A stretch of DNA of 58,865 bases from a virus (Duplodnaviria > Caudoviricetes), in IMG/VR virus record IMGVR_UViG_3300032050_008696, positions 1 through 58,865 of that record, one strand, 5' to 3'. A model generated the notes under the pieces. That model saw nothing but the letters and a program-made list of their open reading frames with translations. It was not told the origin of the DNA and did no database searches. This document shows, piece after piece, positions 1 through 55,312 of this stretch; the first letter of the stretch is position 1, and every line of letters begins with the position of its first letter. The translations under genes were made by a program, and so were the position numbers.

Positions 1-261
1 CACAATATGTTATGTTATTCGTCCACAATCCACACAGTTAATTACTCCGCGTGTTGATGATTGATGGGCCTTCTTTTTCCCACAACGACCTACGATATAT
101 CATTTATAATTTAGCTACGATGTCGTTACGCTTGAATTACAAGTTGTCCAACTCATAATTCTCCATAGACTTACACCACATATTGTTACTCCAACCAATA
201 ATGATTCTTCATCACTATTGTGCGTTACCCCTATACGAAAGGTTGTTCCGCCACTATCTTA
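1..261 (-). ncRNA. Candidate large structured ncRNA with a tRNA-like 5' end, running off the window edge
   Basis: Follows tRNA-Leu and a boxA. Nested helices: 196-205/211-220, 2-10/178-186, 21-28/163-170, hairpin 134-161, 83-89/122-128, 31-37/47-53. Their non-Watson-Crick pairs are G-U on the minus strand. No credible ORF. Confidence 0.65.
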
Positions 262-276
262 AATTGTTAAAGAACT
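261..276 (-). promoter_or_regulatory. boxA-like antitermination element
   Basis: Minus strand AGTTCTTTAACAATTT, close to E. coli rrn boxA TGCTCTTTAACAATTT. Related copies at 576-585, 1571-1580, 1750-1759, 2109-2118 and 2254-2263. Confidence 0.7.
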
Positions 277-285
277 ATCAAAAAA

Positions 286-563
286 TGGTAGGGATGAGTG
301 GATTCGAACCACCGCTTTACAGATTTTCGTACTACTATAACTTTCGTTACTCATTTCTGATTTGTAGTCTGGACTTTCTCTTCATCATAACATTTCTGTT
401 TTAGATGTTCGCCGTTAAGTCTCTACACCTTTTCATTTCTGAACTTGGCTCGGGATTGGCAGTTAAGCTTTCCCCGAATTTGACGAATTCTACTTTGAAG
501 ATTTCTCTTCAAGCACTCAATTTACGCTAAAGTCTGTTGCCTCTTCCGCTGGGCTACATCCCC
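286..563 (-). tRNA. trnL: tRNA-Leu(UAA), intron-containing (exons 563-530 and 327-286)
   Basis: Joined exons give acceptor GGGGATG/CATCCCT, anticodon arm ACAGA-CT TAA AA-TCTGT, T loop TTCGAAT and encoded CCA. Confidence 0.93.
328..529 (-). ncRNA. Group I intron (IC3-like, 202 nt, no ORF) in the tRNA-Leu UAA anticodon
   Basis: 5' exon ends in U and the intron ends in G. IGS GAGT pairs with exon ACTT. Core elements AATTCGGGGAAA (P), AATCCCGAGC (Q), GTAGAGACTTAA (R), AAGAGAAAGTCC (S). GAAA-capped P2 and P9. Confidence 0.92.
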
Positions 564-575
564 ATTTAAATTTGT

Positions 576-612
576 TTAAAGAACCATCACTTACTACTTA
601 TTCATCTTACCA
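576..612 (-). repeat. Duplicated promoter-leader-boxA unit (second copy 2254-2291)
   Basis: aaagaaccatcacttactactt..t.atcttaccac occurs at both places. Confidence 0.85.
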
Positions 613-631
613 CATCTTCTTCTGATGTCAA
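604..631 (-). promoter_or_regulatory. sigma70-type promoter for tRNA-Leu(UAA) and the downstream ncRNA
   Basis: TTGACA-16 nt-TAAGAT with extended -10 TG. Confidence 0.8.
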
Positions 632-649
632 CTGCTTTTTCAAAAAAAT

Positions 650-726
650 TGGTAGCTAGGGTCAGATTCGAACTGACACTGTTTCGTTTTTGAGACGAAT
701 GCCTCCTGCCTTTGGGCTACCTAGCC
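650..726 (-). tRNA. trnL: tRNA-Leu(CAA), short variable loop
   Basis: Acceptor GGCTAGG/CCTAGCT, anticodon arm TTCGT-CT CAA AA-ACGAA, TTCGAAT, CCA. Confidence 0.92.
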
Positions 727-744
727 ATTTAATCTTATACAATA

Positions 745-772
745 ACTATACCGCAAACTTTTAAAAAGTCAA
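745..772 (-). promoter_or_regulatory. sigma70-type promoter for tRNA-Leu(CAA)
   Basis: TTGACT-16 nt-TATAGT. Confidence 0.7.
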
Positions 773-836
773 CTGATTTTAAATCTTTTTTCTACTTTTT
801 TTCTACTTTTAGAATCCACTCATATATTTATATTAT

Positions 837-980
837 ATGGGAAGAAAACAAAAATATAAAACTGAAGAAGAAAAACTTAACGCACGTCGTGAAAGACAAA
901 TGCGTTATTATTTCAAAAATCAACAAGTTAAAAAAGAACAATCATTAAAAAGATATTATAAAAAGAAAGAAAACAAATGA
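837..980 (+). CDS. Small basic protein (47 aa, MGRKQKYKTEEEKLNARRERQMRYY...), not in the ORF track
   Basis: Open frame whose stop overlaps the HNH start (ATGA). Preceded by the ATATTTATA motif. Confidence 0.65.
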   Translation: MGRKQKYKTEEEKLNARRERQMRYYFKNQQVKKEQSLKRYYKKKENK

Positions 981-1381
981 AAACATTCAATTCAATTTGT
1001 AAATGTTGTAATCAACAATTTGTTCATCACTCTTCATCTGGTGGTGTATATTGCACTAATAAGTGCCAACAAAGATATCAAACATCTATAATGAAAGAAC
1101 AGATTAAATCTGGTACATATCCAAATATTCCAACTAGACCATTTATATATTCAATGTTATGTGAAGATTTTGGAAATAAATGTTCACTATGTGGAATAGA
1201 CGGAAATAACTGGAATGGGAATTCTATTAGATTGTGGGTAGACCACATTGATGGTTATGCCAACAATAACAAATATTCTAATTTCAGATTAATCTGCCCC
1301 AATTGTGATTCCCAACTTGATACTTGTAGAGCAAAAAATAAAGGAAAAGGAAGAAAATCTTTGGGATTAAAAATCCGTTGA
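977..1381 (+). CDS. HNH endonuclease (free-standing, homing-type)
   Basis: CSLCG...VDHIDG..NN..SNFRLICPNC, plus an N-terminal Cys-rich Zn module. Confidence 0.88.
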   Translation: MKTFNSICKCCNQQFVHHSSSGGVYCTNKCQQRYQTSIMKEQIKSGTYPNIPTRPFIYSMLCEDFGNKCSLCGIDGNNWNGNSIRLWVDHIDGYANNNKYSNFRLICPNCDSQLDTCRAKNKGKGRKSLGLKIR

Positions 1382-1391
1382 TTAAATAAAA

Positions 1392-1485
1392 TGGTGGTTC
1401 CGCCCGGATTCGAACCGAGACCGTGCTCAAATCTAGAGCTTATCAACGTTATAAGCGTTGCGTTCTACCGTTAAACTACGGAACC
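1392..1485 (-). tRNA. trnI: tRNA-Ile(UAU) with long variable arm
   Basis: Acceptor GGTTCCG/CGGAACC, anticodon arm CAACG-CT TAT AA-CGTTG, extra arm GCTC-TAGATTT-GAGC, TTCGAAT, ACCA. Confidence 0.88.
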
Positions 1486-1491
1486 ACTAAA

Positions 1492-1565
1492 TGGTAGCGG
1501 GTAGCCGAATTACACGACTTCCTTCTCGTTATGAGCGAGATATGCTATTTTTACACTCACCCGCA
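1492..1565 (-). tRNA. Atypical tRNA, CAU anticodon (Met/fMet/Ile2 unresolved), copy 3
   Basis: TCTCG-CT CAT AA-CGAGA, ACCA end. U1:U72 mismatch, T loop TGTAATT. Confidence 0.75.
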
Positions 1566-1584
1566 AATTATTAAAGAACTAAAA

Positions 1585-1656
1585 TGGTAGCTGGTATGGG
1601 TGCTGCCCCCACTTGACAAACCTTATGAGGATTCGTCGTTTGCTGAAACCCCAGCC
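1585..1656 (-). tRNA. Atypical tRNA, CAU anticodon, copy 2
   Basis: GAATC-CT CAT AA-GGTTT, ACCA end. Minimal D arm GTTT-CAGC-AAAC, T loop GGCAGCA. Confidence 0.7.
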
Positions 1657-1664
1657 ATTTTAAA

Positions 1665-1741
1665 TGGTTGCTGAAGCATAGGAATCGCACCTACTTAATG
1701 AATGGTTATGAGCCATCCCCAGATCTAACCTGCCGCCAGCT
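1665..1741 (-). tRNA. Atypical tRNA, CAU anticodon, copy 1
   Basis: GATGG-CT CAT AA-CCATT, ACCA end. A1:A72 mismatch, 2-nt bulge in the acceptor stem, T loop TGCGATT. Confidence 0.7.
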
Positions 1742-1761
1742 ATTGAATTTTAAAGAACCGT

Positions 1762-1925
1762 AAAAAATCGAGTTGGGTGTATTTTATTGAATACTCTATC
1801 CACCCAACAAATAGAGTATACCATGTACTAACCCCGCAACCAAGAAGTTTTTTAAGAGATCTTCCATACTCTAGGGGCGTAGTTTTCTATGCCCTCCACC
1901 ATGTTGTTTTTCTTAGCAATACAAC
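1762..1925 (-). ncRNA. Candidate structured RNA or attenuator between tRNA-Glu and the CAU tRNA trio
   Basis: Helix 1772-1779/1801-1808 precedes a U6 tract. Segment 1811-1819 can pair with either 1791-1799 or 1866-1873. Further hairpins upstream. Confidence 0.5.
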
Positions 1926-1936
1926 CAAACATCAAA

Positions 1937-2011
1937 TGGTAGTCTGTAGGGGAATCGAACCCCTCTTACCGGAGTGAAAGTCCAGTGTCCTAGCCGATAG
2001 ACGAACAGACC
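1937..2011 (-). tRNA. trnE: tRNA-Glu(UUC)
   Basis: Canonical cloverleaf, CTGGA-CT TTC AC-TCCGG, CCA. Confidence 0.95.
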
Positions 2012-2018
2012 GTTAAAT

Positions 2019-2095
2019 TGGTGGTCCCGGTGGGACTCGAACCCACGACCTAAAGCTTAAAAGGCTTCAGCTCTAACCAACTGAGCTACAAGACC
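2019..2095 (-). tRNA. trnK: tRNA-Lys(UUU)
   Basis: Canonical cloverleaf, GAAGC-CT TTT AA-GCTTT, CCA. Confidence 0.95.
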
Positions 2096-2130
2096 AATAA
2101 AATTTTTTTTAAAGAACCGACAACAAAATC

Positions 2131-2158
2131 ATCTTACCATACATTCTTAACTTGTCAA
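2131..2158 (-). promoter_or_regulatory. sigma70-type promoter for the Lys-Glu-CAU-Ile tRNA run
   Basis: TTGACA-16 nt-TAAGAT with extended TG, followed by boxA at 2109-2118. Confidence 0.8.
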
Positions 2159-2174
2159 CAGCGATGTTCTTTGT

Positions 2175-2249
2175 TGGTGACCCCCTTCGGTTAAAGGCCG
2201 AGGCAGTTCCGCCATACGTAGATGTTCTAGAGGAGTGCTTCTCCCACCA
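2175..2249 (-). ncRNA. Unknown 75-nt structured RNA
   Basis: GC-rich island with its own promoter and boxA. Closing stem TGGTG/CACCA encloses four short hairpins. Confidence 0.6.
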
Positions 2250-2281
2250 TGCTTAAAAGAACCATCACTTACTACTTCTTT

Positions 2282-2309
2282 ATCTTACCACTAAGTTTTC
2301 AAAGATCAA
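2282..2309 (-). promoter_or_regulatory. sigma70-type promoter
   Basis: TTGATC-16 nt-TAAGAT with extended TG. Confidence 0.65.
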
Positions 2310-2377
2310 TAACTTTTTTTAGAAAGTTTTGAGGTAACTTATAAATATTAAATATATCAAATAAATTACCGAAAAAA

Positions 2378-2452
2378 TGGTACCCCCATTAGGATTCGAA
2401 CCTAAACAAAGGCTTTAGAAGAACCTTGTGCTATCCATTACACCATGAGGGC
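2378..2452 (-). tRNA. trnR: tRNA-Arg(UCU)
   Basis: Cloverleaf, AGGTT-CT TCT AA-AGCCT, TTCGAAT, CCA. Confidence 0.93.
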
Positions 2453-2461
2453 ACTGTGAAC

Positions 2462-2794
2462 TTACTTACCTTTTTCCATTTCATCCCGAAGAGCTTTACC
2501 AAGTTCAGTTAAACTGAAAAGTGGTTCACCATCTTCGTTAGTACCTGAAACATATAATAGACCATCTTCAACCATCTTGTCAACTGTCTTTTTAGTTTCC
2601 GCCAAACTAATTTCATTATAAATCACTTCGGCTTCAAACTCGTTACAATCAAGCTCTTTCATGATTACCTCAATACAAGCTTGCTTTTCTTCGGCTTTGA
2701 CTTGTTCTTCTACTTTATCGGCATCAAGATTAGAACAATGATTCAATAGATCGTCAATTGATCCGGTGAAGTTATCGGTAATGTACTTGTCCAT
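2462..2794 (-). CDS. Hypothetical protein, possible C-terminal winged helix
   Basis: KMVEDGLL...FSLTELGKAL resembles a wHTH wing. Confidence 0.6.
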   Translation of the reverse strand: MDKYITDNFTGSIDDLLNHCSNLDADKVEEQVKAEEKQACIEVIMKELDCNEFEAEVIYNEISLAETKKTVDKMVEDGLLYVSGTNEDGEPLFSLTELGKALRDEMEKGK

Positions 2795-2805
2795 GTATAT
2801 AGATA

Positions 2806-3090
2806 TTATAGTGTTACTGGTACATTCTTGTAGTAACGTACAGCACGATCTACCATCTTATTAAGAACCTTTGTGGTACTTACTGGTACAGTTTTATTTG
2901 GACCCCATCCATTTTCAGCACGACCAAGAGCAATAGTAAATGCCTTGCGTTTATCAAATCGATCACCAGCTTTTGTATTTGTATGACTCCACCCCAATCG
3001 AATTGTACCATCAATAACTGTGGCAACAACCATTCCACGGGGCTGACCATTACGGTCACGTACCAACTGCTTAAGTGTAGTATCCTTCAT
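2806..3090 (-). CDS. Hypothetical protein (start moved to MKDTT)
   Basis: ORF. The upstream extension overlaps the neighbouring gene and an A-rich leader. Confidence 0.65.
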   Translation of the reverse strand: MKDTTLKQLVRDRNGQPRGMVVATVIDGTIRLGWSHTNTKAGDRFDKRKAFTIALGRAENGWGPNKTVPVSTTKVLNKMVDRAVRYYKNVPVTL

Positions 3091-7320: not shown

Positions 7321-8163
7321 ATGAAAGGTATTATTCTATCAGGAGGCACTGGAAGCAGACTATATCCGCTTACCGCAACAGTAAATAAGCAATTATTGCC
7401 TGTTTATGATAAGCCAATGATTTATTATCCGTTAAGCACAATGATATCGTGTGGTATACGTGAGTTTTGTATCATTTCTACTCCAGAATATCTACCAATG
7501 TATGAAAAGTTATTTGGCAACGGAAATCATCTTGGGCTAGAAATAACTTACAAAATACAATATAAACCAAACGGTATAGCTGAATCATTTATAATAGCTG
7601 AAGATTTTATCGGTAACGATAACGTATCACTTATACTTGGTGACAATATATTTCACGGATTAAACCGAGTTAAAACAAATCTTAATGGCGCTTTGGTTTT
7701 TGCTTACGAAGTAAACAATCCACAAGACTATGCAGTAGTAGAGTTTGATGATAACAACAAAGTTATTAGTATAGAAGAAAAACCTAAAGCTCCAAAAAGT
7801 AAATTTGCCATTCCCGGCTTATATTTCTTCGATAATAGAGTTGTTAAGTTTAGCAAATCATTAAAACCATCCAAACGTGGCGAACTGGAGATTGTGGATG
7901 TCATGAACGCGTACCTAAACGACGGTGGTATTGATGTTATTAAATTTCCTAGGGGTACTGCTTGGTTAGACGCTGGTCTACCAGACTCACTGTTCCAAAG
8001 CGCTGCTTATGTAAAAACAATTCAAGAAAGACAAGGTATACGAATTGGTTGTATAGAAGAAGAATGTTACAACAAAGGATTTATTAATAAAGCACAACTT
8101 AAGAAAGTTATTGACAAATTACCAAATTCAGAATATAAAGCTTATTTACAGAAGTATGAATAA
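7321..8163 (+). CDS. rfbA: Glucose-1-phosphate thymidylyltransferase
   Basis: GIILSGGTGSRLYPLT, KQLLPVYDKPMIYYPL, EEKP, RGELEI, RGTAWLDAG. Confidence 0.95.
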   Translation: MKGIILSGGTGSRLYPLTATVNKQLLPVYDKPMIYYPLSTMISCGIREFCIISTPEYLPMYEKLFGNGNHLGLEITYKIQYKPNGIAESFIIAEDFIGNDNVSLILGDNIFHGLNRVKTNLNGALVFAYEVNNPQDYAVVEFDDNNKVISIEEKPKAPKSKFAIPGLYFFDNRVVKFSKSLKPSKRGELEIVDVMNAYLNDGGIDVIKFPRGTAWLDAGLPDSLFQSAAYVKTIQERQGIRIGCIEEECYNKGFINKAQLKKVIDKLPNSEYKAYLQKYE

Positions 8164-9448
8164 AAAAGAACTAATCAAAAATTTTATACAAGAAGTACAA
8201 AAAATTCAATTTGTACCAGAATACTGCCACAATCTAAAAGGAGCCAAGAACAAGGTTTATTACTCTGGTCCATTAATGGATGAGGAAGAATTAACAGAAG
8301 CTATTGATTCGTTGTTATTCGGCAAATGGTTTGTTAGCGGTGAAAAGGTTTATCAGTTTGAAAGAGAATTCAGCAAAACTGTAAATCAAAAACATTCGGT
8401 AATGGTTAATTCTGGTAGTTCAGCAAATCTTGTAATGATTGCTGCACTAAAACAATACTTCAAGTGGACATCTACAGATGAAATTCTTATTAGCGTAGTA
8501 GGATTTCCAACCACACTTAATCCAATTATTCAAGCGGGTCTAAAACCAGTGTTCGTAGATATAGAATACGACACTTTAAACTTTGACTTAAATGAATTGG
8601 TAAAGAAAATTACACCAAACACCAAAGCTATATTCGTTTCACCTGTACTTGGCAACCCTCCAGACATGGATAAGCTGGTCGAAATCGCCAAGGCAAACAA
8701 CCTAGAAATTATCATGGATGGTTGTGACAGTTATGGTAGCAAGTGGAATGGTAAACATTTAGACGAATATGCTATAGCAACTAGCTGTAGTTTTTATCCA
8801 GCACATCACATCACAACAGGTGAAGGTGGCATGGTCAGTTCAAACGTAGAAGAAATTGTAAAACTTGCTAGAACATTTGCTTGGTGGGGAAGAGATTGTT
8901 ATTGTGTTGGTCCCGCTAATTTGTTGAAGAACGGTAGTTGCAATTGCAGATTCAGTCAGTGGATCAAAGAACTTCCATATGAAATTGATCACAAGTATTT
9001 CTTCTCACAAATTGGCTACAATCTAAAGCCACTTGATCTACAAGGCGGTATTGGATTGGCTCAGTTGAAGAAAGCAGACGGTATTCATGAAGCTAGAAAG
9101 AAGAACAAAGATACCATTCAAAATATTCTATCTGGAATTAAAGGATTGAAGTTTCCAACTAAACATGATAAAGCAGATGTATCTTGGTTTGGCGTACCTG
9201 TAATTTGTGAATCATTTGAACAAAAGTCCAAGTTGGTTATTTATCTTGAAACAAACGGCATTCAGACACGCAATTACTTTGCTGGTAACATTCTACTACA
9301 TCCAGCTTATACACACTTGGAAAGTTGGAAGAATTATCCAAACGCTACAAACGTACTCGGCAACGTATTCTTCTTGGGATCGTCACCAACACTAACCCAA
9401 GACAACCTAGATTACATGAAAGAAATCATTGAAAAGTATGAAAATTGA
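8156..9448 (+). CDS. rfbH: NDP-4-keto-6-deoxyhexose 3-dehydratase (RfbH/E1 type, DegT superfamily)
   Basis: VNSGSSANL, SFYPAHHITTGEGG (His replaces the Schiff-base Lys), WGRDCYC...C cysteine cluster, GYNLK. Confidence 0.9.
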   Translation: MNKKELIKNFIQEVQKIQFVPEYCHNLKGAKNKVYYSGPLMDEEELTEAIDSLLFGKWFVSGEKVYQFEREFSKTVNQKHSVMVNSGSSANLVMIAALKQYFKWTSTDEILISVVGFPTTLNPIIQAGLKPVFVDIEYDTLNFDLNELVKKITPNTKAIFVSPVLGNPPDMDKLVEIAKANNLEIIMDGCDSYGSKWNGKHLDEYAIATSCSFYPAHHITTGEGGMVSSNVEEIVKLARTFAWWGRDCYCVGPANLLKNGSCNCRFSQWIKELPYEIDHKYFFSQIGYNLKPLDLQGGIGLAQLKKADGIHEARKKNKDTIQNILSGIKGLKFPTKHDKADVSWFGVPVICESFEQKSKLVIYLETNGIQTRNYFAGNILLHPAYTHLESWKNYPNATNVLGNVFFLGSSPTLTQDNLDYMKEIIEKYEN

Positions 9449-18397: not shown

Positions 18398-18865
18398 ATG
18401 AGCAACTATCAACACCTATTATCAAAACATGGTATATTAGTTTCATTTAACATTGCTAGAAGAATCAAGCCGTCACAAATAAATGCTATAAGGAAACGAC
18501 TAGAAAAAAATAGCGCTGATCCTAAAAAGATTGAAAAACAAATAAGTAAAGAAGTAAAAAAACGTACAGAAAAATATCTTGATGAAAACGATATACCAGG
18601 TATGGTTACACAAGATTATCGTGGAGAAAAAATAGTAATCAATCCAAAAATACAAAGAAAAATATTATCTCTTGCTAATAAAGTAGTTGACTTTGCTAGA
18701 ACAAATAACTTTTCAAAAGAACATATAATATTTTTTATTCAAGCAGTATTTCACTTGTTAAAAATAACAAATGAAGACATGGAAAAATTCAAACAAAAAT
18801 ATAATATTAATCAAGACTCGGACGATGACTATTTAGATGAAGACGGTGATGAGCCTGGATTTTAA
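18398..18865 (+). CDS. Hypothetical protein with acidic tail
   Basis: Coupled ORF. Confidence 0.6.
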   Translation: MSNYQHLLSKHGILVSFNIARRIKPSQINAIRKRLEKNSADPKKIEKQISKEVKKRTEKYLDENDIPGMVTQDYRGEKIVINPKIQRKILSLANKVVDFARTNNFSKEHIIFFIQAVFHLLKITNEDMEKFKQKYNINQDSDDDYLDEDGDEPGF

Positions 18866-19977
18866 TGAAACTTATGGAAATATTAAATATTAATGATGTT
18901 ATACCCTTTATTGAAGGTAAAAAGGTTATATTTGTTACTGGTGTTACTGGACAAGATGGCAGTCACATGGTTGATTACCTATTAGCAAATACCGATTATT
19001 TTATTGTGGGCGGTGCTAGAAGATTGAGTATCAAGAATCACGAAAATATAAAACATCTTGAAACTAACACAAGATTCAAATTGGTAAACTTTGATTTGAG
19101 TGATGCTCACAGTATCAGTAAAATAGTAGAAAAGTTAAAACCAGAATATTTCATTAATTTAGCCGCACAAACATTCGTAGGTAGCAGTTGGGACTTTCCA
19201 GCACAAACGTGGGAATGTAATACCACAGGTGTAATTCATATACTTGAAGCAATTCGTCAACACAAACCAACTTGTAGATTCTACAATGCTGGTAGTAGTG
19301 AAGAATATGGTAATGTAGCCTACACTCCACAAGATGAAAATCATCCATCCAAACCGCGTAGTCCATATGGAGCTAGTAAATCAGCGGCTAGACAATTAGT
19401 AAAAGTATACAGAGAAAGTTATAATCTATATGCAGTACAGGGTTTATTATTCAATCATGAAGGTACTAGAAGAGGTGAAGAGTTTGTTACTCGTAAAATT
19501 ACCAAAGGTGTAGCTAGAATCAAAAAAGCTATATTAGAAGGTAAATCATTTGAACCTATTGAACTTGGTAACGTAAAAGCAAGAAGAGATTGGAGTGATG
19601 CCGAAGACTTCGTTGACGGTATATGGAAGATGTTGAATCAAGAAACCCCAAATGAATATGTGTTATCAAGCAATGAAACACATACCATTGCCGACTTTGT
19701 ATATTACGCATTTAAAGCAGCTGGTATCGAAGGTGGATGGCACGGCGAAGCCGAATCGTCAGAATTTAGTATTACTACACAAGATGCTTTGAAGTATGAT
19801 CCCGTAGCATCTGTATTGGTTAAAATCAATCCAAAGTTCTATAGACCAGCCGAAGTAGAATTGTTATTGGGTGATAGTACAAAAGCTAGAAACGAATTAA
19901 AATGGTCACCAAAAACATCTTTTGAACAACTTATAGATAAGATGGTTAAAAACGATTTAACTCAAGTTGGACTATAA
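18865..19977 (+). CDS. gmd: GDP-mannose 4,6-dehydratase
   Basis: GVTGQDGS, PRSPYGASK, FNHE..RRGEEFVTRKI, YRPAEVELLLGD. Confidence 0.95.
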   Translation: MKLMEILNINDVIPFIEGKKVIFVTGVTGQDGSHMVDYLLANTDYFIVGGARRLSIKNHENIKHLETNTRFKLVNFDLSDAHSISKIVEKLKPEYFINLAAQTFVGSSWDFPAQTWECNTTGVIHILEAIRQHKPTCRFYNAGSSEEYGNVAYTPQDENHPSKPRSPYGASKSAARQLVKVYRESYNLYAVQGLLFNHEGTRRGEEFVTRKITKGVARIKKAILEGKSFEPIELGNVKARRDWSDAEDFVDGIWKMLNQETPNEYVLSSNETHTIADFVYYAFKAAGIEGGWHGEAESSEFSITTQDALKYDPVASVLVKINPKFYRPAEVELLLGDSTKARNELKWSPKTSFEQLIDKMVKNDLTQVGL

Positions 19978-37218: not shown

Positions 37219-38109
37219 ATGTCAATTGAAGAAATTAAAGAAATAAAAAAGAAACGAGTCAGTTTTAGTCAATATTCTACATATTTGAAGTGTCCCCAAA
37301 AATGGTATTTAGATTATGTTAAGAATCTTCGGGTAAAAGACGACAATATCAATACCACGTTTGGAACTGCTATTCATCATGCGTTTCAGACATATCTTAC
37401 ATCTCTTTATAAAGAAGGAGTGGGTGTAGCTGACACTTTAGATGTGAAGAAGCTGTTCTTAGATAAATTCAATGAAGAAATCAAAAAGGTAAAAGATGTA
37501 GATGATAATGAATTTACCGACTTTGTATTTGATGGTAATGATATTATTGATACCTTTTGTAAAAGTGCCAATAGACTAAAATATTTTCCTACCAAAGAAT
37601 ATGAGTTGGTAGGCATCGAAATTCCCCTAGAAATTCCTATTAAGAACAATGTAGAGTTCGTAGGATTTATTGATATAGTATTAAAAGAAAAAGACAAGGA
37701 GATATATCGTATTATTGACTTCAAGACATCCAGTAATGGTTGGAACAGCTATATGAAAGAAGATGTAAGCAAGATTGCTCAGTTACATCTATACAAGAGT
37801 GTTTATAGTAAAAAATTCAATGTACCTCTAAATAATATTGATGTAGAGTTCTTTATTGTTAAACGTAAACTATATGAAAATGTAAGCTTTCCCCAAAGCA
37901 GAATTCAGTTATTCAAACCAACCGCTGGCCCAACTGCTATTAAAGAAAGTATTCACGGATTCATTGAATTTTTAGATTATGGATTTAATCCAGATGGTAC
38001 ATACAACGAAACCAATCAATATATAAAAGTACCTGGTAATGGTAAAAAGAATTGTAAGTACTGTGTACACTACAAAAAGATCTGTGATGGCAAAGCCACT
38101 AAATTATAA
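37219..38109 (+). CDS. PD-(D/E)xK nuclease (Cas4/AddB-like)
   Basis: SFSQ...CP, FGTAIH, GFIDIV..IIDFKTS, CKYC......C. Promoter TTGACT-16-TAAGAT at 37185-37212. Confidence 0.9.
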   Translation: MSIEEIKEIKKKRVSFSQYSTYLKCPQKWYLDYVKNLRVKDDNINTTFGTAIHHAFQTYLTSLYKEGVGVADTLDVKKLFLDKFNEEIKKVKDVDDNEFTDFVFDGNDIIDTFCKSANRLKYFPTKEYELVGIEIPLEIPIKNNVEFVGFIDIVLKEKDKEIYRIIDFKTSSNGWNSYMKEDVSKIAQLHLYKSVYSKKFNVPLNNIDVEFFIVKRKLYENVSFPQSRIQLFKPTAGPTAIKESIHGFIEFLDYGFNPDGTYNETNQYIKVPGNGKKNCKYCVHYKKICDGKATKL

Positions 38110-38112
38110 TAA

Positions 38113-38150
38113 ATATGTACATATGTGTATATCTATATATGTACATATGT
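38113..38150 (+). promoter_or_regulatory. Tandem palindromic operator-like repeat
   Basis: ATATGTACATATGT at 38113-38126 and 38137-38150, each with a 12-bp palindromic core, directly before the RHH ATG. Confidence 0.65.
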
Positions 38151-38151
38151 T

Positions 38152-38367
38152 ATGGATCAATTTGTTACAACAGTAAAACTTAATCAAGAATTATATAATC
38201 AGTTTAAAGAACTGAATATAAGAGGCAAAATATCTTTTCAAGATTTTGTCAATAAATGTCTAGAAAGATATTTAAACGATTCTGACTTTCAATCTGAGAT
38301 TAGCGAAAGCATTTCACAGAAGTTAAGTTTTAATGCTCCATTTTCATTATCAAAGGATTCTAAATGA
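38152..38367 (+). CDS. Ribbon-helix-helix DNA-binding protein
   Basis: TTVKL strand followed by two helices (ELYNQFKE; SFQDFVNKCLERYL). Confidence 0.7.
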   Translation: MDQFVTTVKLNQELYNQFKELNIRGKISFQDFVNKCLERYLNDSDFQSEISESISQKLSFNAPFSLSKDSK

Positions 38368-38915
38368 AAAAGAAAAAGATATTATTATTAAGCGACGATC
38401 TAAGAATGCATAGTGGTGTAGCTACTATGAGTCGAGAATTGGTATTGGGTACATTACATCACTATGATTGGGTACAAATTGCCGGTGCTATTAAACATCC
38501 TGAACAGGGTAAGATCGTAGATATGAAGGATGCTTGTGACAAACTTAATGGTAGAAAAGATAATTATCTAAAGTTATATCCAGTCGATGGTTATGGTGAT
38601 GAAGAAGTGTTGTATCAAATCATGGCATTAGAAAAGCCAGATGCAATTATGCACTTCACAGATCCTCGTTTCTGGGGTTGGTTGTATAATATAGAACATC
38701 AAATTCGCAGTAAGATTCCACTAACATATCTTGATATTTGGGACGATCTACCATATCCAATGTGGAATAAACCATTCTATAAGAGTTGTGATGCTTTATT
38801 TAGCATCAGTAAACAAACGGACAATATCAACAAGTGGGTAATTGGACCAGAACTATGTACCTCTGTTGAAGGTGATTTTGATAGCAACGGTAATTTAATC
38901 AAGGAGAACATTTAA
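38364..38915 (+). CDS. GT4 glycosyltransferase, N-terminal domain
   Basis: ILLLSDDLRMHSGVAT, EKPD, IWDDLPYP, ISKQT. Confidence 0.8.
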   Translation: MKKKKILLLSDDLRMHSGVATMSRELVLGTLHHYDWVQIAGAIKHPEQGKIVDMKDACDKLNGRKDNYLKLYPVDGYGDEEVLYQIMALEKPDAIMHFTDPRFWGWLYNIEHQIRSKIPLTYLDIWDDLPYPMWNKPFYKSCDALFSISKQTDNINKWVIGPELCTSVEGDFDSNGNLIKENI

Positions 38916-38916
38916 T

Positions 38917-39879
38917 ATGCCAGTAAAAGGAAAACATCTATTACACTATGTACCACACGGTATTAATAGTAACGTATTTAAACCTCTTCCAAAAGGAGAC
39001 TCTTCGGTTGCCAAGTTAAAGAAAGAGTTACTCGGCGACGGAGAATATAATTTCGTAGTAGCATTCAATAGTAGAAATGCACACCGTAAACATCCCGCAA
39101 ATCTAATATTGGCATTCAAAGCTTTTTGTGCATCCATTGATCAAGAAGAAGCTAAAAAATGTGCATTGATAATGCATACAGACAAAGTATGTGAAGCTGG
39201 TACGGATCTAGTTGCTACAATTCAAGCTATTTGTCCAGAATATAAAGTGGTACTAGATGAATCTCGTAGAACCCCAGAAGAAATGACAGCATTCTATAAT
39301 CTAGCCGATGTTACTGCTAATGTGAGTTCAAACGAAGGATTTGGTCTAAGTATTGCCGAAAGTATCATGTGTGGCACACCGGTAATCGCTACAGTCACAG
39401 GAGGTTTACAAGATCAACTCGGAATTGTTACAGATGACGGTAAACCTGTAGAATTCAATCTAGAGTTTGGTACTAATGTTACAGGACGATACACTAAACA
39501 CGGAGTATGGGCAAAGCCTGTGTGGGCTAAAGTACAAAATCTACAAGGTAGTCCTCCAACACCATATATTATGGATGATTTAGTAAACTATACAGACATT
39601 GCTGATGCCATTGGTTATTGGTATGTGATTGGTAATGAGAAACGTGAAGAATGTGGTACCGAAGGTCGTAGATGGGCAATGAATGAAGGTGGTATCAATA
39701 GTAAAAATATGTGTGACCAGTTTATTAAAGCTATGGATTTCACACTAAACAATTTTACTCCGGTTAAAACATTTGACATTTTTACCGAAAATGGTTATGA
39801 TATTAAAAATCTACCCAAGGGTAAATTGGGATTTGATCTACACGTAGTAAATCTAGAATCTATTAAACAAACTATTTAA
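38917..39879 (+). CDS. GT4 glycosyltransferase, C-terminal domain
   Basis: YVPHGIN, RN..RK, NEGFGLS..ES..CGTPVI....GGL.DQ. Confidence 0.85.
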   Translation: MPVKGKHLLHYVPHGINSNVFKPLPKGDSSVAKLKKELLGDGEYNFVVAFNSRNAHRKHPANLILAFKAFCASIDQEEAKKCALIMHTDKVCEAGTDLVATIQAICPEYKVVLDESRRTPEEMTAFYNLADVTANVSSNEGFGLSIAESIMCGTPVIATVTGGLQDQLGIVTDDGKPVEFNLEFGTNVTGRYTKHGVWAKPVWAKVQNLQGSPPTPYIMDDLVNYTDIADAIGYWYVIGNEKREECGTEGRRWAMNEGGINSKNMCDQFIKAMDFTLNNFTPVKTFDIFTENGYDIKNLPKGKLGFDLHVVNLESIKQTI

Positions 39880-40571
39880 TGAAAATTCAAGTATTAAAAA
39901 ACGAAGATTATCAAGATATAGAAAATCTACCGAAGAAAGGTACAGAACGTGCTACTGGTTATGATGTAATCGCTACAAGTGGTCCAGAGATAGTTGGAGA
40001 AACGTATGAGAATGGTACGTATAAACGAATAGACTACATTCAGTATAAAACAAATCTGAAACTAGCAGTTCAAAAAGAAAGACAATATAGTGGATTCGGT
40101 TATACTGATATTGACTATGATGTACTAGCATTTCCTCGTAGCAGTGTTAGTAAATACAATCTCACCTTGGCTAACTCTATTGGCTTGATCGATGCCGATT
40201 ATCGTGGGGAAGTATTACTTCGTTTTAAGTATATCTGGCAGCCAGAAGATTATAAAATCAGTACTGATAATCTGATTGAAGGAACCGTAAATCTCACTAA
40301 GGTTTATAACAAGGGTGATAAAATCTGTCAACTCAAAGTTACCAAAGTAGAAAACGTTGAATTCATTTTAGTAAATGAACTAGATTCTACTAATAGAGGT
40401 GATGGTGGATTTGGTAGTACCGATACTAAAAAAGCAGAAAAAGCTGAGATTGCTCAGATTCAAATGAGCAAGATGGAAGAACTCTACAACAATCTAGGTG
40501 GTATACCAACACCAACTAAAAAATATAGTCAGTTAATTCACGAAAGAGAATCAAAACAATTTAATCAATAA
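39879..40571 (+). CDS. dut: Trimeric dUTPase
   Basis: ATGYDV, PRSS, GLIDADYRGE, ICQL, RGDGGFGST. Confidence 0.93.
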   Translation: MKIQVLKNEDYQDIENLPKKGTERATGYDVIATSGPEIVGETYENGTYKRIDYIQYKTNLKLAVQKERQYSGFGYTDIDYDVLAFPRSSVSKYNLTLANSIGLIDADYRGEVLLRFKYIWQPEDYKISTDNLIEGTVNLTKVYNKGDKICQLKVTKVENVEFILVNELDSTNRGDGGFGSTDTKKAEKAEIAQIQMSKMEELYNNLGGIPTPTKKYSQLIHERESKQFNQ

Positions 40572-40572
40572 T

Positions 40573-41904
40573 ATGAGCAAACCATTATGTCTAATTTCAG
40601 GTCCAGTATTTAACCGTAGCGGATATGGTGACTGGGCAACAACAGTTGCAAAAAGCATCATTCGTTATGATAAGTTTGATGTCAAAGTAGCTCCAACTAG
40701 ATGGGGTAACTGTCAAAGCAAACGTTTTCTTGAAGATCTTACAGATCCAGAAGATAAACTATTAGCGAGTAAGTTCCTTCAAGGAAATTTAAATAAACAA
40801 CCAGAATTGTTTATTCAATTAACAATTCCAGAAGAATTTCACGCTGTTGGTAAATACAACATCGGCATGACTGCTGGTATAGAAACCACCATTCCACCTG
40901 GCAGCTGGGTTGAAGGTGTTAATAGAATGGATCTAACAATCGGTCTATCTAATCACGTAAAGAAAACCTTTACCGAAATTAAAATGGCTAAACAACTTGA
41001 AAATGGTCAACAAGTAAGTATTCAAGTTGAAAAGCCAATCGAAGTATGTTTCTGGGGAGCTGATACAAACATCTTCAAAAAGACAGATGAAAAGTTAGCT
41101 ACGGTCGAAGAGTCGATGTCAAAGATTAAAGAATCAAGCGCATTCTTGTTTATTGGACAGTGGACACATGGTGGATTGTATAATGACCGTAAAGACATTG
41201 GCAATCTAATCAAGACCTTTTGTACAGCATTTAAGAATCAATCAGAAAATGATCGTCCATGTTTGATCGTCAAGACGAGTGGACATGCTTATTCTACAGT
41301 AGATAGATTTGAAATGTTGAGTAAGATTAAAAAGATTCGTGACAGCATTGGTGCAAACGTTCCCAACGTATATTTGTTACATGGCGAACTTAGTGAACCG
41401 GAAATGAACGCTTTGTTGAATCATGAGAAGATTATAGCACATGTTTCATTTACACATGGTGAAGGATATGGTCATCCAATGTTATTGTCCACACTTAGTG
41501 GTAAACCACTACTAGCTCCTAATTGGAGTGGTCATTTAGACTATCTAAATCCTTCACTAGCAAACTTGTTGCCTGGTAATCTTGTTGATGTAGATAAAAA
41601 GTCAGTCAATCAATGGATTATCAAAGAAAGCAAATGGTTCAAGGTAGCTTATTCTTTGGCAGAAGACAAGATGAAACAAGTTTACTTTGCTCGTAAGGGT
41701 GATAAGTTTACAAAGAATGCTGAACTTTTACGTAAAGAAAACGCTGACAAGTTTAGTATTCCGGCTATGGATAAACGTTTGTGGGAGATTCTTGATAAGT
41801 ATGTACCACAATTCGCAGTAGAAAATCAATTTGTACTACCAAAGTTAAAAGCGGTAGGAACCACTGAAAATAAAATTACTCTACCCAAGTTGAAAGTAGT
41901 CTAA
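40573..41904 (+). CDS. Glycosyltransferase GT4
   Basis: RSGYG, AGIET, DRKDI, HGEGYG.P.L....GKP......SGHLDYL. Confidence 0.85.
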   Translation: MSKPLCLISGPVFNRSGYGDWATTVAKSIIRYDKFDVKVAPTRWGNCQSKRFLEDLTDPEDKLLASKFLQGNLNKQPELFIQLTIPEEFHAVGKYNIGMTAGIETTIPPGSWVEGVNRMDLTIGLSNHVKKTFTEIKMAKQLENGQQVSIQVEKPIEVCFWGADTNIFKKTDEKLATVEESMSKIKESSAFLFIGQWTHGGLYNDRKDIGNLIKTFCTAFKNQSENDRPCLIVKTSGHAYSTVDRFEMLSKIKKIRDSIGANVPNVYLLHGELSEPEMNALLNHEKIIAHVSFTHGEGYGHPMLLSTLSGKPLLAPNWSGHLDYLNPSLANLLPGNLVDVDKKSVNQWIIKESKWFKVAYSLAEDKMKQVYFARKGDKFTKNAELLRKENADKFSIPAMDKRLWEILDKYVPQFAVENQFVLPKLKAVGTTENKITLPKLKVV

Positions 41905-41905
41905 T

Positions 41906-42553
41906 ATGTTTTTATCTTATCTAGTAACATGTCATAACGAGACAAATAGTTTGGAAAAACTATTATCTAAATTAATTAAATACAGAAAGGATAACCATGA
42001 AATTGTTCTTCTTGATGATTATTCGGATAATCCAACAACTGTGGAAATTATACAAAAATATAAAGACCAGGTAAATTTCCAACAACATAGTTTGAATAAA
42101 AATTATGGTGCTCATAAAAATTATGGCATAGAACTGTGTAAGGGTGAATGGATATTTCAACTTGATGGTGATGAACTACCTACAGACATTCTAATTGAAA
42201 ACATCGATGCCATATTAGAGTCTAACAATACTAATGAAGTAATTTGGCTACCTAGATGTAATTACTTCATCGGAGTAACTGATAAAGATGTAAATGATTG
42301 GGGATGGCGGTTACATGATGGTATGATTAACTTTCCAGATTATCAATCTCGTCTGTATCGTAATAAGCCTAACATTAGATATCAACGTAGGTTACATGAA
42401 AAAGTAGAAGGATATAAGAGTTATGTTTTTATTCCGCCACAAAAAGACATAGCAATTATTCATGAAAAGACTATTGAAAAACAAAGACAGACAAACTTAA
42501 ATTATAACAACATGTTTACTCAAGAGGAAAACATGGGTTATGCAGTAAAATAA
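41906..42553 (+). CDS. Glycosyltransferase GT2
   Basis: DDYSD, WIFQLDGDE, PDYQ.R, LHE. Confidence 0.88.
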   Translation: MFLSYLVTCHNETNSLEKLLSKLIKYRKDNHEIVLLDDYSDNPTTVEIIQKYKDQVNFQQHSLNKNYGAHKNYGIELCKGEWIFQLDGDELPTDILIENIDAILESNNTNEVIWLPRCNYFIGVTDKDVNDWGWRLHDGMINFPDYQSRLYRNKPNIRYQRRLHEKVEGYKSYVFIPPQKDIAIIHEKTIEKQRQTNLNYNNMFTQEENMGYAVK

Positions 42554-43560
42554 TGAAAATTAAAATATACGAACTTGACAAACATCGTAATGAAACTACG
42601 TTTAGACCATTATTGTTACAACATAAGTTATTCAATGATGTTGGTATAGAGTTCGTAAATTCAGGTCAAGCGGATTTTGCTTTTGTTGGTCATGCAAGTA
42701 TAGTTGATAAAAAAGTATCATTGAGTGAATCCACAAACAAAGGATTAGAATTTTTAAAGTCAGTAAAAGAACCTTATTTTTTGTTTGATGGTCAAGACGC
42801 AGCTACTTTAATGGGCGTGTATGAAGTTGCTACACGTTCTAATCCTATCTATGTATTAAAACCTACTCTATACAAAGATCGTTCAAATTATCTAAAAAAG
42901 AGTGTCAATGGTCGAATTTATTGGGGTGAAGGCAATTATAGTTTACCAAACTTAAACATCTTTGAAAAAGTAAAGTTGGCTCATTTTAATTGGTTATCTA
43001 CCATGATGCCTGAGTGGTATGATTATTATCCAAATAAACCATATGATGTTAGTCTATTGTTGGGTAGAAGAGATTCTGACAGTTTAGAACACAATTTAAA
43101 TCAAACGCCTCACTATAACAGTCATAGAGATAATCTATTCAATACAGTAGATAAAAAATACAAAACCGCTTCTTTAGAAAAGGGACAAAGACTGGCGTTG
43201 GGAGAATATCTTAACAAGATGTACAATTGTAAGATAATACTATCACCATATGGATTTGGTGAAGTTACTCCTAGAGATTTAGAAGCAGCTATGTTTGGTT
43301 GTGTTTTAATTAAACCAGATATGTCTTATTTAGAAATGATACCTAATGTATATGTTCCAAATGAAACATACGTTGCTTGTAAACATGATTTTTCAGATAT
43401 AAATGAAAAAATTGATTATGTACTGTCCGATTATGAAAATTTGCAGAAGTTTTATACTGAAAATCTAAGAAAGAAATTTATTGAAGAAAACAATCCAGAA
43501 AAAATGGTAACTTACTATTACAATTTGTTTAAAAATATAAAAGGAGTTACAACAGAATGA
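42553..43560 (+). CDS. Putative GT-B glycosyltransferase
   Basis: KIILSPYGFGE...RD.EA..FGCVLIKP. Confidence 0.7.
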   Translation: MKIKIYELDKHRNETTFRPLLLQHKLFNDVGIEFVNSGQADFAFVGHASIVDKKVSLSESTNKGLEFLKSVKEPYFLFDGQDAATLMGVYEVATRSNPIYVLKPTLYKDRSNYLKKSVNGRIYWGEGNYSLPNLNIFEKVKLAHFNWLSTMMPEWYDYYPNKPYDVSLLLGRRDSDSLEHNLNQTPHYNSHRDNLFNTVDKKYKTASLEKGQRLALGEYLNKMYNCKIILSPYGFGEVTPRDLEAAMFGCVLIKPDMSYLEMIPNVYVPNETYVACKHDFSDINEKIDYVLSDYENLQKFYTENLRKKFIEENNPEKMVTYYYNLFKNIKGVTTE

Positions 43561-44222
43561 AAATAGGCATTACCGCTCCAATGCATTGGTCCGATAAATA
43601 TAGAGTCAAAGGTAACGACTTTATAAAAAAAATGACAGATTCTATTAATAAATCTGTTAAATATGATCATACCGTCTATGTCGTGGACAATGGAAGTCAA
43701 TACAAATCGGATATTCATACATATCCAAATGTACATTATACTTGGATTGAAGATCAATCAATTGGCGGTATTACTCATGCTTATAATGTAGGAATATATC
43801 AAGCTTATAAAGATAATTGTGATGTAATTATCGTGACCAGTGATGATGTAGAATTCAATCACACCGCAAATAAATTTGTTGAGTTTATATCAAGAGACTC
43901 GGAAAGTTTAGATTGTATATACGGTCCATTAACAAATGGAGTGTTAAGTGAAGAACAAAAATCAAATGGACCGATGATAGGAACTAAAGAAATAACTGTA
44001 CTGAACGGATTTACTTTCGCTTTTACAAGACAACATTATGAAAAGTATCGTGCAACTAAATACACATATTTAAATGAACAGACAATAAATAAATGGCACG
44101 GTCAAGAAAATCAATTCATAGAGAATAGAAAACGAGGAGCTAAGTGTAAAGTGTTGAATTTCTGTTGGTTAATGCATGACAAACAACGTGGTTGGAAAAA
44201 GTGTTTGAGTGAAATAAAATGA
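43557..44222 (+). CDS. Glycosyltransferase GT2-like
   Basis: VVDNGS, AYNVG, SDD. Confidence 0.75.
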   Translation: MKIGITAPMHWSDKYRVKGNDFIKKMTDSINKSVKYDHTVYVVDNGSQYKSDIHTYPNVHYTWIEDQSIGGITHAYNVGIYQAYKDNCDVIIVTSDDVEFNHTANKFVEFISRDSESLDCIYGPLTNGVLSEEQKSNGPMIGTKEITVLNGFTFAFTRQHYEKYRATKYTYLNEQTINKWHGQENQFIENRKRGAKCKVLNFCWLMHDKQRGWKKCLSEIK

Positions 44223-44223
44223 T

Positions 44224-45231
44224 ATGAAGATCAAAAACAAATATGTTACAGGTACACAAGTAATGTTTTATGAAATAGAAATGTTTGATGATAACATTTC
44301 AGGTATTATAAACACTTTAAAATTGGTAGACAACAGAGAAAATCTTACTTATCATTTTACGTTCAATATGTCTGAAGCGTTTGAACTAATTGATACTTTA
44401 AAAATTTCTAGAGACGAATTAAAGCGTAGATTTATAGAACAAATAGATAGACTAAAAAAAGAAGGTGTAAACGTAAAGTATGATATCTTGGAAGGTAAAG
44501 AACCATATAGTATGGCAAATTACCGTAGAGATTTTAATTATTTAAATTGTACAAATAACGATGTTTTGATATGGGGTGAAACCGACTGTTATATGCCTGC
44601 CGAGACCTTTCCTATTTTAGAACAACTGCGTGAATATTCAACTTCACAGAATATTTGGAAATATGTAGTTACATTCGCAATACGAAAGATGTGGGATTCT
44701 AGTTGGTCTGCGTTGGAACATGTTGACTTTGAAAATTGTAAATATTACGAAAAGACCGAACCCAAATGTTTTACAGAACAATCATCTATAAGATATGTCA
44801 TGTCAATAGATGAAATGAATGCAATAAACTCAAAAGCAACTGATCTAGACATTCGTATATTAAAAAGTCCTCGGTTCGATGGTTCTGGGGCTATATTCTC
44901 CACGGATCTAATAAAAGCCGGAGCCAATATACCTCTGGCTGCGTTTGGCATAGCATCAGATGACACTTTCATGATGGAATCGTGTAGAAAGACCATGGGC
45001 AATCAATATGTACAGTATGTAGTTAAAAACGTCTTAAAAGTACATAATAGAGAACATCCTCGTAAACGTAATTATGCTTTAAATATTCAAGGTCAAGAAA
45101 GTACTCAAAGTAAAAAAGGCGATTGGTATAAAGTTATAAGAAATACGAACGAACAAAATCTACATATGTATTCTCAGACCAATCAAAATAGGTTTTTCAC
45201 TTATCAAGATTGTTTAAATACGTTACAATAA
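44224..45231 (+). CDS. Putative GT-A-like protein
   Basis: WGETD, DD and H motifs, and cluster context. Confidence 0.5.
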   Translation: MKIKNKYVTGTQVMFYEIEMFDDNISGIINTLKLVDNRENLTYHFTFNMSEAFELIDTLKISRDELKRRFIEQIDRLKKEGVNVKYDILEGKEPYSMANYRRDFNYLNCTNNDVLIWGETDCYMPAETFPILEQLREYSTSQNIWKYVVTFAIRKMWDSSWSALEHVDFENCKYYEKTEPKCFTEQSSIRYVMSIDEMNAINSKATDLDIRILKSPRFDGSGAIFSTDLIKAGANIPLAAFGIASDDTFMMESCRKTMGNQYVQYVVKNVLKVHNREHPRKRNYALNIQGQESTQSKKGDWYKVIRNTNEQNLHMYSQTNQNRFFTYQDCLNTLQ

Positions 45232-45235
45232 ATAT

Positions 45236-50954: not shown

Positions 50955-50955
50955 C

Positions 50956-52170: not shown

Positions 52171-52172
52171 TT

Positions 52173-54938: not shown

Positions 54939-55312
54939 ACTTTACCGATTTTAATATTCCTATGATATGTTGGGTAGCATTTGTCATGGTCGTTTGGTTT
55001 GAAAGTGATATCGTTACTACGATTGCTAATTTAACCAATACGAGAAATCTTTTAAAAATAAACGAGTTTAGTAAATATAAGTTGGAAATAGATGTAATGT
55101 CTAATTATCCAAACTTTCTTTATAGTATGTATCCAGGCTATTTAACTAAACTATTATCATGTCCAATATGTTTATGTTTTTGGACAACACTATTCTCTGT
55201 TAACTTACTGGTACTTGCATATGGATATAATCCATTATTTGCTTATTTATTATTTCCAATCAACTATATCAGTAGTTTGTTTTTATATTTAATAGTTAGA
55301 AAACTGTTATGA
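54935..55312 (+). CDS. Membrane protein with CxxC motif
   Basis: Hydrophobic segments, LLSCPICLCFW. Confidence 0.65.
   Translation: MNFTDFNIPMICWVAFVMVVWFESDIVTTIANLTNTRNLLKINEFSKYKLEIDVMSNYPNFLYSMYPGYLTKLLSCPICLCFWTTLFSVNLLVLAYGYNPLFAYLLFPINYISSLFLYLIVRKLL

Follow-up and report, generated by a model that had tools for sequence, protein, structure and literature searches.

The window analysed here, the entire 58,865-nt viral record IMGVR_UViG_3300032050_008696 (estimated completeness 18%), begins with a conserved, structured RNA gene that occupies positions 1–262 on the minus strand. The gene encodes a long form of a manA-like RNA, of which the window carries the 5′ 88% of a molecule of ~298 nt. 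The element folds as a five-way junction (helices P1–P5) and is a new long variant in the wider manA family (manA RNA, RF01745), not a manA member by Rfam's rule. A preliminary description, made from the letters alone, had proposed that the minus strand encodes a large folded non-coding RNA belonging to a tRNA array, and had been unable to match it to GOLLD or ROOL. The proposal was borne out: the RNA lies within the array in tRNA orientation, and no open reading frame (ORF) longer than 48 aa was found inside the element. The RNA does have relatives, namely in the wider manA family.

The window copy is cut by the contig end, 33–36 nt short of the 3′ end of the RNA. This length follows from the near-identical copies L127, L134 and L131, which run on beyond window position 1 with AAACTTGGAGGTAATCATTAGTCCTTCCTATTTGAA; what is lost comprises the whole P5 hairpin together with the 3′ strands of P1 and of the outer stem of P4. 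The opposite end of the contig carries no continuation of the RNA, and the record has no circular join. Homologues were collected from IMG/VR with motifs of the 5′ part and the centre, and from metagenome contigs with a two-part central motif, which located the element at 35 loci (25 distinct 500-nt rows); full copies of ~298 nt were present at 16 related freshwater viral or metagenome loci. L126, one of 12 matches to a 17-nt core word, lies within coding DNA and was rejected as a chance match, and a blastn search of window positions 1–300 against 50,697 phage records gave no match; blastn of the S-CREM1 manA found only itself. At L125:1135–1422(−), on a viral contig of 171 kb, the upstream tRNA breaks off after its 5′ half and continues directly into the middle of the element, so that its 3′ half and approximately the first 85 nt of the RNA are missing; the cause is either a deletion or an assembly chimera.

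The minus strand folded at −69.1 kcal/mol (z −3.46; none of 200 shuffles as good), whereas the plus strand reached only −43.5 kcal/mol (z −1.43), a value equalled or bettered by 20 of 200 shuffles, which fits the earlier remark that the non-Watson–Crick pairs are G-U on the minus strand. P1 joins both ends of the molecule (AGAUAG/CUAUUU) and is extendable to UUAAGAUAG/CUAUUUGAA. The P2 stem encloses GAACAAC, a small variable hairpin and GGGGUAA, with GAAYAAC and GGGUAA conserved and unpaired. The P4 domain of ~200 nt, specific to the long form and enlarged in this lineage, holds hairpins at 134–161, 64–83 and 31–53 in addition to an invariant block at 84–131. Finally, P5 is a 5-bp stem (GGAGG/CUUCC) with an 11-nt loop, UAAUCAUUAGU, that directly abuts the 3′ strand of P1. 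The minus-strand letters quoted in the preliminary description (AAGATAG-TG-GCG-GAA[CAACCTTTCGTATAGG]GGTAA-CGC-A) are present at 260–221, and so is its 10-bp hairpin with a 5-nt loop (CAATAGTGAT/GAAGA/ATCATTATTG) at 220–196. The multibranch domain was likewise recovered, with a closing helix of 2–15/173–186, of which the pairing 2–10/178–186 given earlier is the core.

Covariation among the homologues was assessed in two alignments. The first, A1, was made with MAFFT and holds 21 of the 23 distinct rows (L125 and the 5′-truncated L144 being excluded), and the structure evaluated consists of the 81 pairs that recur when 9 or more of the 16 full-length rows are folded at minimum energy. In A1, 98.1% of the cells were paired under this structure, and 15 of the 81 pairs had changed on both sides, compared to 5.4 ± 1.5 in shuffled alignments (0 of 500 reached the observed value) and 0–4 in slid controls. 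In the second, A2, a 27-member family alignment fitted to a covariance model, 96.9% were paired and the both-sided changes rose to 46 of 81, compared to 16.8 ± 2.5 after shuffling. The effect in A1 was strongest in P3 and two hairpins of the big P4 domain; both-sided changes affected 7 of 10 pairs of P3 in A1 and 9 of 10 in A2, as well as 5 of 6 pairs of P1 and 3 of 5 pairs of P5 (both in A2). In the helix closing the P4 domain, changes are mainly one-sided (8 of 12 pairs), with 98% pairing retained; variation in the closing helices is mostly G-U exchange. The unpaired nucleotides of the junction are highly conserved in both alignments. An alternative closing helix, in which the Rfam alignment pairs GAUAG with CAAUC after the first hairpin, was rejected because it is broken in the divergent lineage L138 while the CUAUUU partner co-varies.

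Several features of the material temper the covariation result. The structure was derived from minimum-energy folds of the same sequences, the long forms differ little from one another (mean column identity 85%, effective number 1), and A2 was fitted to the model. Moreover, the invariance of the P2 stem and of the central block was forced by the search patterns: block 84–131 and two central helices are invariant because their sequence was required for a match.

The relation to manA was approached from both sides. Searched against Rfam, the window copy gave no manA match, even at E ≤ 10, while in full-length long forms manA was the only responding model, at 14.2–14.3 bits against a gathering cut-off of 55.2 bits. 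The Infernal and Rfam search suggested earlier gave a response for the complete copies but not for the window copy, and below the cut-off. Shorter relatives of 140–210 nt have the same 5′ core and 3′ hairpin, and family members are matched by the Rfam manA model over its full length (positions 1–192), with scores of 40.2 bits for L005 (E 6e-7), 26.9 for L098 (E 3e-5), 24.9 for L054 and 22.9 for the L110 record; the canonical controls S-CREM1, P-SSM2 and S-SSM7 scored 96.6, 181.6 and 123.6 bits, respectively. Similarly, a covariance model built from A1, here called R1, found the short forms L098 (57.9 bits), L014 (55.8 bits), L005 and L049 (41.0 bits) and others down to 19.6 bits; the E values of 1e-10 to 1e-17 for L098, L014 and L005 link the long form to these intermediates. 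L005 is claimed by both models, given its 40.2 bits with manA and 41.0 bits with R1.

Parts of the architecture are shared as well. The P2 region forms a conserved 5′ core in common with manA (GUG-NCN-GAAYAAC-hairpin-GUAA-NGN in the long form, S-CREM1, P-SSM2 and S-SSM7), which the Rfam model aligns in the long form with high posterior probability. Both RNAs end in UUG, a 4–5-bp stem with an 11–12-nt UA...U loop, C and the 3′ strand of P1; this hairpin followed by the P1 strand was found in 16 of 16 full-length long forms and in the short forms, and lies outside the window itself. Both have a multi-helix junction closed by a helix pairing the ends, the central GUAaCGAC...GUCGuUUGUGGG stretch of the long form aligns to the manA consensus, and the phage hosts are related to cyanophages in both cases. 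The long form differs in its length (~298 nt compared to 192 nt), in its additional multibranch domain and duplicated 3′ hairpin, in pairing GCG/CGC rather than ACU/GGU in P2, in lacking the 5′ P0 hairpin of manA, and in being freshwater rather than marine. Taken together, homology of the element with manA is regarded as likely, with good confidence.

Some observations pull in the other direction. Besides the blank Rfam result for the window copy, no family member reaches the gathering cut-off for manA, and R1 with default filters matched none of the three canonical manA RNAs (S-CREM1, P-SSM2 and S-SSM7). With filters off, R1 placed the S-CREM1 manA correctly at 8.1 bits (E 0.044), which is barely above the 7.1 bits obtained for the S-CREM1 tRNA-Leu. 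In addition, the nearest isolate by family B DNA polymerase (PolB), Microcystis phage Mel-JY01, has neither a manA match nor the element.

The long form always lies within a tRNA array in tRNA orientation, flanked by tRNA(-like) genes and, unlike manA, never in a 5′ untranslated region (UTR); a position in the 5′ UTR of a protein gene was found in none of 19 loci. Upstream, a tRNA CCA end and a T-run lie 23 nt away in 13 of the 19, the remaining 6 having an AT-rich promoter-like stretch, and a tRNA(-like) gene follows within 20 nt in all 19 (tRNA-Gly-like in 18, tRNA-Glu in one). Canonical manA is itself located among tRNAs in two of the three copies examined: S-CREM1 carries it between tRNA-Leu and tRNA-Asn, and in S-SSM7 it abuts tRNA-Gly(UCC) with zero spacer. 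A manA search of S-PM2, Syn9 and S-SM1 found none.

Evidence for a transcript came from RNA libraries. Among 24 runs listed, 20 contain the stretch or part of it, and 6 of these 20 are RNA libraries; contigs on the element were present in four of four RNA runs examined, from four studies, and the proposed transcript is thereby supported. In run X15, the word-depth sums were 1,100–35,000 for contigs inside 1–260, compared to 3–63 over 261–700. These depths are taken as a hint of accumulation only, since contig depths may also count relatives and are no proper basis for ranking the parts of a gene. Two X15 contigs carry a head-to-tail join, leading from ...CCUAUUUGAA to (U)UAAGAUAG, and these junction contigs end at 261 and 262; at the junction, ...GGAGGUAAUCAUUAGUCCUUCCUAUUUGAA is directly joined to UAAGAUAG or UUAAGAUAG. 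As DNA, the same junction was found neither in the 2.9 million viral contigs of IMG/VR nor in 152 loci. The join could stem from a circular RNA, from end-to-end template switching on an RNA of very high abundance, or from a tandem copy that was not sampled. Of these, circular RNA and template switching would both put the mature ends at the base of P1.

Contigs from X18 and X20 that both start at 248 were taken as an assembly break in a conserved stretch and not as an RNA end. Phage RNA ligase (PF09414) and RtcB (PF01139) gave no matches in three records that are 18–51% complete, a result that is uninformative either way. As for the notion of a separate RNA species, it must be set against it that the RNA evidence consists of assembled contigs only, that a low-depth contig (234–327, depth 5.9) crosses the 5′ border, and that DNA carry-over is possible in X17, X18 and X20.

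The reading we prefer, and to which we give somewhat better than even weight, is that of a stable RNA co-transcribed with the tRNAs and then excised, with a conserved junction that binds a ligand or a protein. The element would be transcribed together with the tRNAs and released as a stand-alone, stable and abundant RNA with its ends at the base of P1. Its 3′ end could be produced by an RNase P cut at the next tRNA-like gene followed by trimming back to P1, and its 5′ end by an endonuclease cut within the AU-rich, boxA-like spacer. The conserved junction core would then bind the ligand or protein, and the tRNA-like layout may serve processing and stability rather than aminoacylation. That the processing enzymes are inferred counts against this scheme.

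Alternatively, the element could act in cis as a riboswitch, its junction binding a metabolite and controlling read-through into the downstream tRNA(-like) genes. In 2010, Weinberg et al. put manA forward as a riboswitch candidate from cyanophages, and the main text of that paper places it solely in 5′ UTRs (PMC2864571). The P-SSM2 copy lies in the purL leader, 15 nt before purL, the short forms L098 and L005 sit just upstream of ORFs, and the highly conserved unpaired nucleotides of the junction also speak for ligand-dependent control. However, P1 of the long form ends only 5–9 nt from the next tRNA-like gene, with no terminator or expression platform, and the downstream genes encode RNAs and not mRNA, which weakens this explanation. 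Furthermore, the depth of RNA contigs inside the element is far above that of the flanks, and the ends map to P1. A riboswitch of this kind is thus considered rather improbable.

The results bear on manA as a whole, a riboswitch candidate that was described in 2010 and is still an orphan. The family is wider than Rfam detects, spanning GC-rich and AT-rich phages, freshwater and marine habitats and lengths of 140–300 nt, and many of its members, canonical cyanophage copies among them, lie inside tRNA operons and abut tRNA genes. The long form, moreover, may be a free RNA, a separate species with paired ends in RNA libraries. It is because of this wider family, the tRNA-operon setting and the signs of a free RNA that the working idea shifts from a 5′-UTR switch towards a stable RNA excised from tRNA precursors, with a tRNA-like frame. 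For annotation, the analysis provides a model for an unannotated ~300-nt gene of large freshwater phages.

The resemblance to tRNA had been taken further in the preliminary description, in which the RNA was seen as a tRNA mimic, and this claim survived only in part. Set beside the D-arm consensus of class II tRNAs, the Leu/Ser-type likeness is real at the level of sequence: the 5′ part GUGGCGGAA...GGUAACGC resembles a class II D arm (GGCGGAA...GGUAACGC) and, as in those tRNAs, UG follows the first stem. The five helices map weakly onto the class II cloverleaf, to judge from the model alignments. R1 aligns end to end to the T4 tRNA-Ser at 5.7 bits, with the acceptor, D, anticodon, variable and T arms falling on P1, P2, P3, P4 and P5, respectively, and end to end to the S-CREM1 tRNA-Leu at 7.1 bits; in these tiny searches, the corresponding E values were 0.01–0.1. 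The topology is shared, including a large fourth (variable) arm, as are a 5-bp last stem abutting the 3′ strand of the first stem, the location in a tRNA operon and the junction linkers (2 nt after P1, 1 after P2 and 0 between P5 and the P1 3′ strand). A 3′ strand complementary to AAGATAG, which had been anticipated beyond the contig end, does exist as CTATTT in the complete relatives, and the resulting P1 has 6–7 bp, where a tRNA has an acceptor stem of 7 bp.

On the other hand, the T arm anticipated left of position 1 was not found, the full-length relatives having the P5 stem and its 11-nt loop instead of the 7-nt UUCRANY loop of a T arm. The arm noted at the anticodon position does align to the anticodon arm, but P3 has 10 bp and a 5-nt loop rather than 5 bp and a 7-nt loop. 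No CCA or discriminator base is present at the 3′ end of the RNA, where the flank reads GAAUUUAAUG, although CCA is encoded in the tRNA genes of the phage itself. In 1–261, neither ARAGORN nor the Rfam tRNA model RF00005 (at the gathering threshold and at E ≤ 10) detected anything, so that the element, with its third arm of 10 bp and fourth arm of ~200 nt, is missed by tRNA finders. The scores of 5.7–7.1 bits are too weak to establish either tRNA descent or tRNA mimicry, and the missing T arm, anticodon-type loop and CCA also speak against a working mimic. A true mimic would be a class II (Leu/Ser-type) copy handled by tRNA-binding proteins, with the mimicry as its function; the proposed partners are a synthetase, RNase P and the CCA-adding enzyme, or else host anticodon nucleases for which the RNA would be a decoy. 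The D-arm likeness, the end-to-end alignments, the linkers and the operon setting all favour such a role. It is nonetheless deemed unlikely, given the deficits above and the relatives in 5′ UTRs far from tRNAs that retain the same core.

A more distant alternative is that the element represents a decayed or intron-bearing tRNA-Leu gene, or an accidental fold in AT-rich spacer. The adjacent tRNA is truly split by a group I intron, and the 5′ end of the element resembles tRNA-Leu. Yet no intron model matched in 1–261 at E ≤ 10, the full-length relatives have no T arm, the supposed insert is the conserved and co-varying part, and the family also occurs far from tRNAs; an accidental fold is at odds with the shuffles, none of which folded as well. 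These explanations are already contradicted and are given next to no weight. A bolder extension of the preferred scheme of an excised stable RNA would be that the manA-family RNAs are descendants of class II tRNAs that have been made ornate and turned into very abundant free RNAs, with tRNA processing setting the ends and the long form being circular and exonuclease-resistant. We regard this as speculative and quite improbable.

GOLLD and ROOL, both large ornate RNAs, are frequent neighbours of tRNA genes in phages. The preliminary description could match the element to neither, and indeed neither gave an Rfam match in the window or in the full-length relatives; the likeness lies in being a large structured RNA beside phage tRNA genes, the present element being much smaller. 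GOLLD, ROOL, tmRNA, permuted tmRNA, tRNA-Sec and group I intron were all rejected on the Rfam results, the sole matches, of tmRNA type with 15 and 9 bits at 208–313, being due to the T arm of the tRNA upstream. The rnaC and rnaD RNAs of T4, known from the older literature as the stable RNA species 1 and 2, occupy the same kind of niche, as small stable RNAs at the end of a tRNA cluster with a homing-endonuclease gene, but are much shorter (139 and 119 nt). Kinship with them was rejected, as the best R1 match in the T4 region scored 6.2 bits and fell off both rnaC and rnaD.

The carriers are T4-like or jumbo phages of fresh water with kinship to cyanophages. The best PolB match of the window is Mel-JY01 at 44% identity, followed by Synechococcus phages at ~30%, and since Mel-JY01 is without the element, no cultured carrier is known. 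The source labels of runs with the stretch are freshwater, aquatic, plankton or estuary metagenome, or plain metagenome.

The coordinates of the element and its neighbours are compiled in Table 1.

Table 1. Parts of the long-form RNA and neighbouring features at the left end of the window.
Feature	Position	Strand	Remarks
P1 5′ strand UUAAGAUAG	254–262, core AGAUAG 254–259	minus	partner CUAUUU(GAA) outside the window
UG linker (252–253) and P2 domain	222–253	minus	GCG 249–251 pairs with CGC 222–224
P3 10-bp hairpin, loop GAAGA	196–220	minus	fold and covariation
P4 outer stem 5′ strand GAGU	188–191	minus	partner ACUU beyond the contig end
P4 multibranch domain	2–186	minus	closed by 173–186/2–15 and 163–170/21–28
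boxA-like AGTTCTTTAACAA	264–276	minus	within the 23-nt spacer from the upstream tRNA CCA end (286) to the RNA 5′ end
Upstream tRNA, anticodon UAA, 76 nt joined	286–563	minus	group I intron 328–529 (RF00028, 70.7 bits)
HNH endonuclease gene, 134 aa	977–1381	plus	PHROG E 3e-17; no Pfam match at 1e-3
tRNA array: tRNA-Arg, tRNA-Lys, tRNA-Glu, weak tRNA (1495–1565), tRNA-Ile(UAU), tRNA-Leu(CAA), UAA tRNA	window left end	minus	

The UAA tRNA is class-I-sized, and its ORF-less intron of 202 nt lies between U34 and A35, the position classically occupied by the intron of tRNA-Leu(UAA) in cyanobacteria and plastids. The tRNA is uninterrupted (76 nt) in L127, L134 and L128, while L111 has the intron; a 327/530 joint in one RNA contig reflects either splicing or an intron-less relative. 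Elsewhere in the array, the tRNA-Ile(UAU) at 1392–1485 (−) is 94 nt long owing to a 21-nt insertion in the variable region, and the tRNA at 1495–1565 (−) was recognised in the window by Rfam only (36.9 bits) and missed by ARAGORN, which calls it tRNA-Met in relatives. The HNH gene is inserted in the array on the opposite strand, and T4 segB is in a similar place.

The boxA claimed in the preliminary description is present as an exact TTCTTTAACAA (boxA-like) at 264–274, a word presumably resembling the rrn boxA consensus of E. coli. Words of the type GTTCTTTAA(A)CAA occur on the minus strand at 264–276, 572–584, 1568–1578 and 2106–2116, 10–20 nt before RNA genes of the array, and two of them follow identical TTGACA-16-TGnTAAGAT promoter-like sites (631–604 and 2158–2131). 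Window-wide, 13 boxA-like words with at most one mismatch were counted, compared to 6.1 ± 2.4 expected (2 of 100 shuffles reached 13). Sigma-70-like promoters (11 compared to 9.5 ± 3.3) and terminators (2 compared to 2.0) in 1–3000 were at chance level.

The tRNA-Gly-like units downstream of the long form occur singly or as two in tandem and measure 73–81 nt (for example L127:3253–3326(−), L134:12923–13084(−) and L130:2375–2529(+)). Their acceptor stem, beginning GCG..., has 7 bp; it is accompanied by a D stem, an anticodon stem with the loop NUUCCAG or CUACCAG (anticodon UCC or ACC), an aberrant T region and an encoded UCCA end. The stems co-vary, 8 of 15 predicted pairs having changed on both sides. 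The units are missed by ARAGORN and the Rfam tRNA model; read against the identity elements of tRNA-Gly, they are probably non-canonical tRNA-Gly genes.

Canonical manA RNAs have been reported near mannose-metabolism genes. The window contains a large block of sugar-modifying genes (8111–9448, 18865–19977 and 38000–56000), among them a C-methyltransferase, a DegT-type aminotransferase, a GDP-mannose 4,6-dehydratase and an extended series of ORFs of 220–400 aa, to which the manA-like RNA is not adjacent; PolB and UvdE are also encoded.

Among the short forms, L051, L029, L119 and L006 have an extra co-varying outer helix around the P0 hairpin and core, pairing ACAACUAAC with GUUAGUUGU and UUCAACUGC with GCAGUUGAA. 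All four lie upstream of a gene that, as read from its translation, encodes a gp32-like ssDNA-binding protein. Candidate RNAs in this position, 12 in number, are reported before gp32 genes in a survey from 2023 (PMC10690425). Finally, three phage tRNA arrays with short manA-like RNAs also gave sub-threshold matches of 34–38 bits to YrlA, a Y RNA-like, tRNA-mimicking RNA (L040:928–1034, L058:4315–4379 and L075:13330–13398), and L075 carries a tRNA with the amber anticodon CUA.

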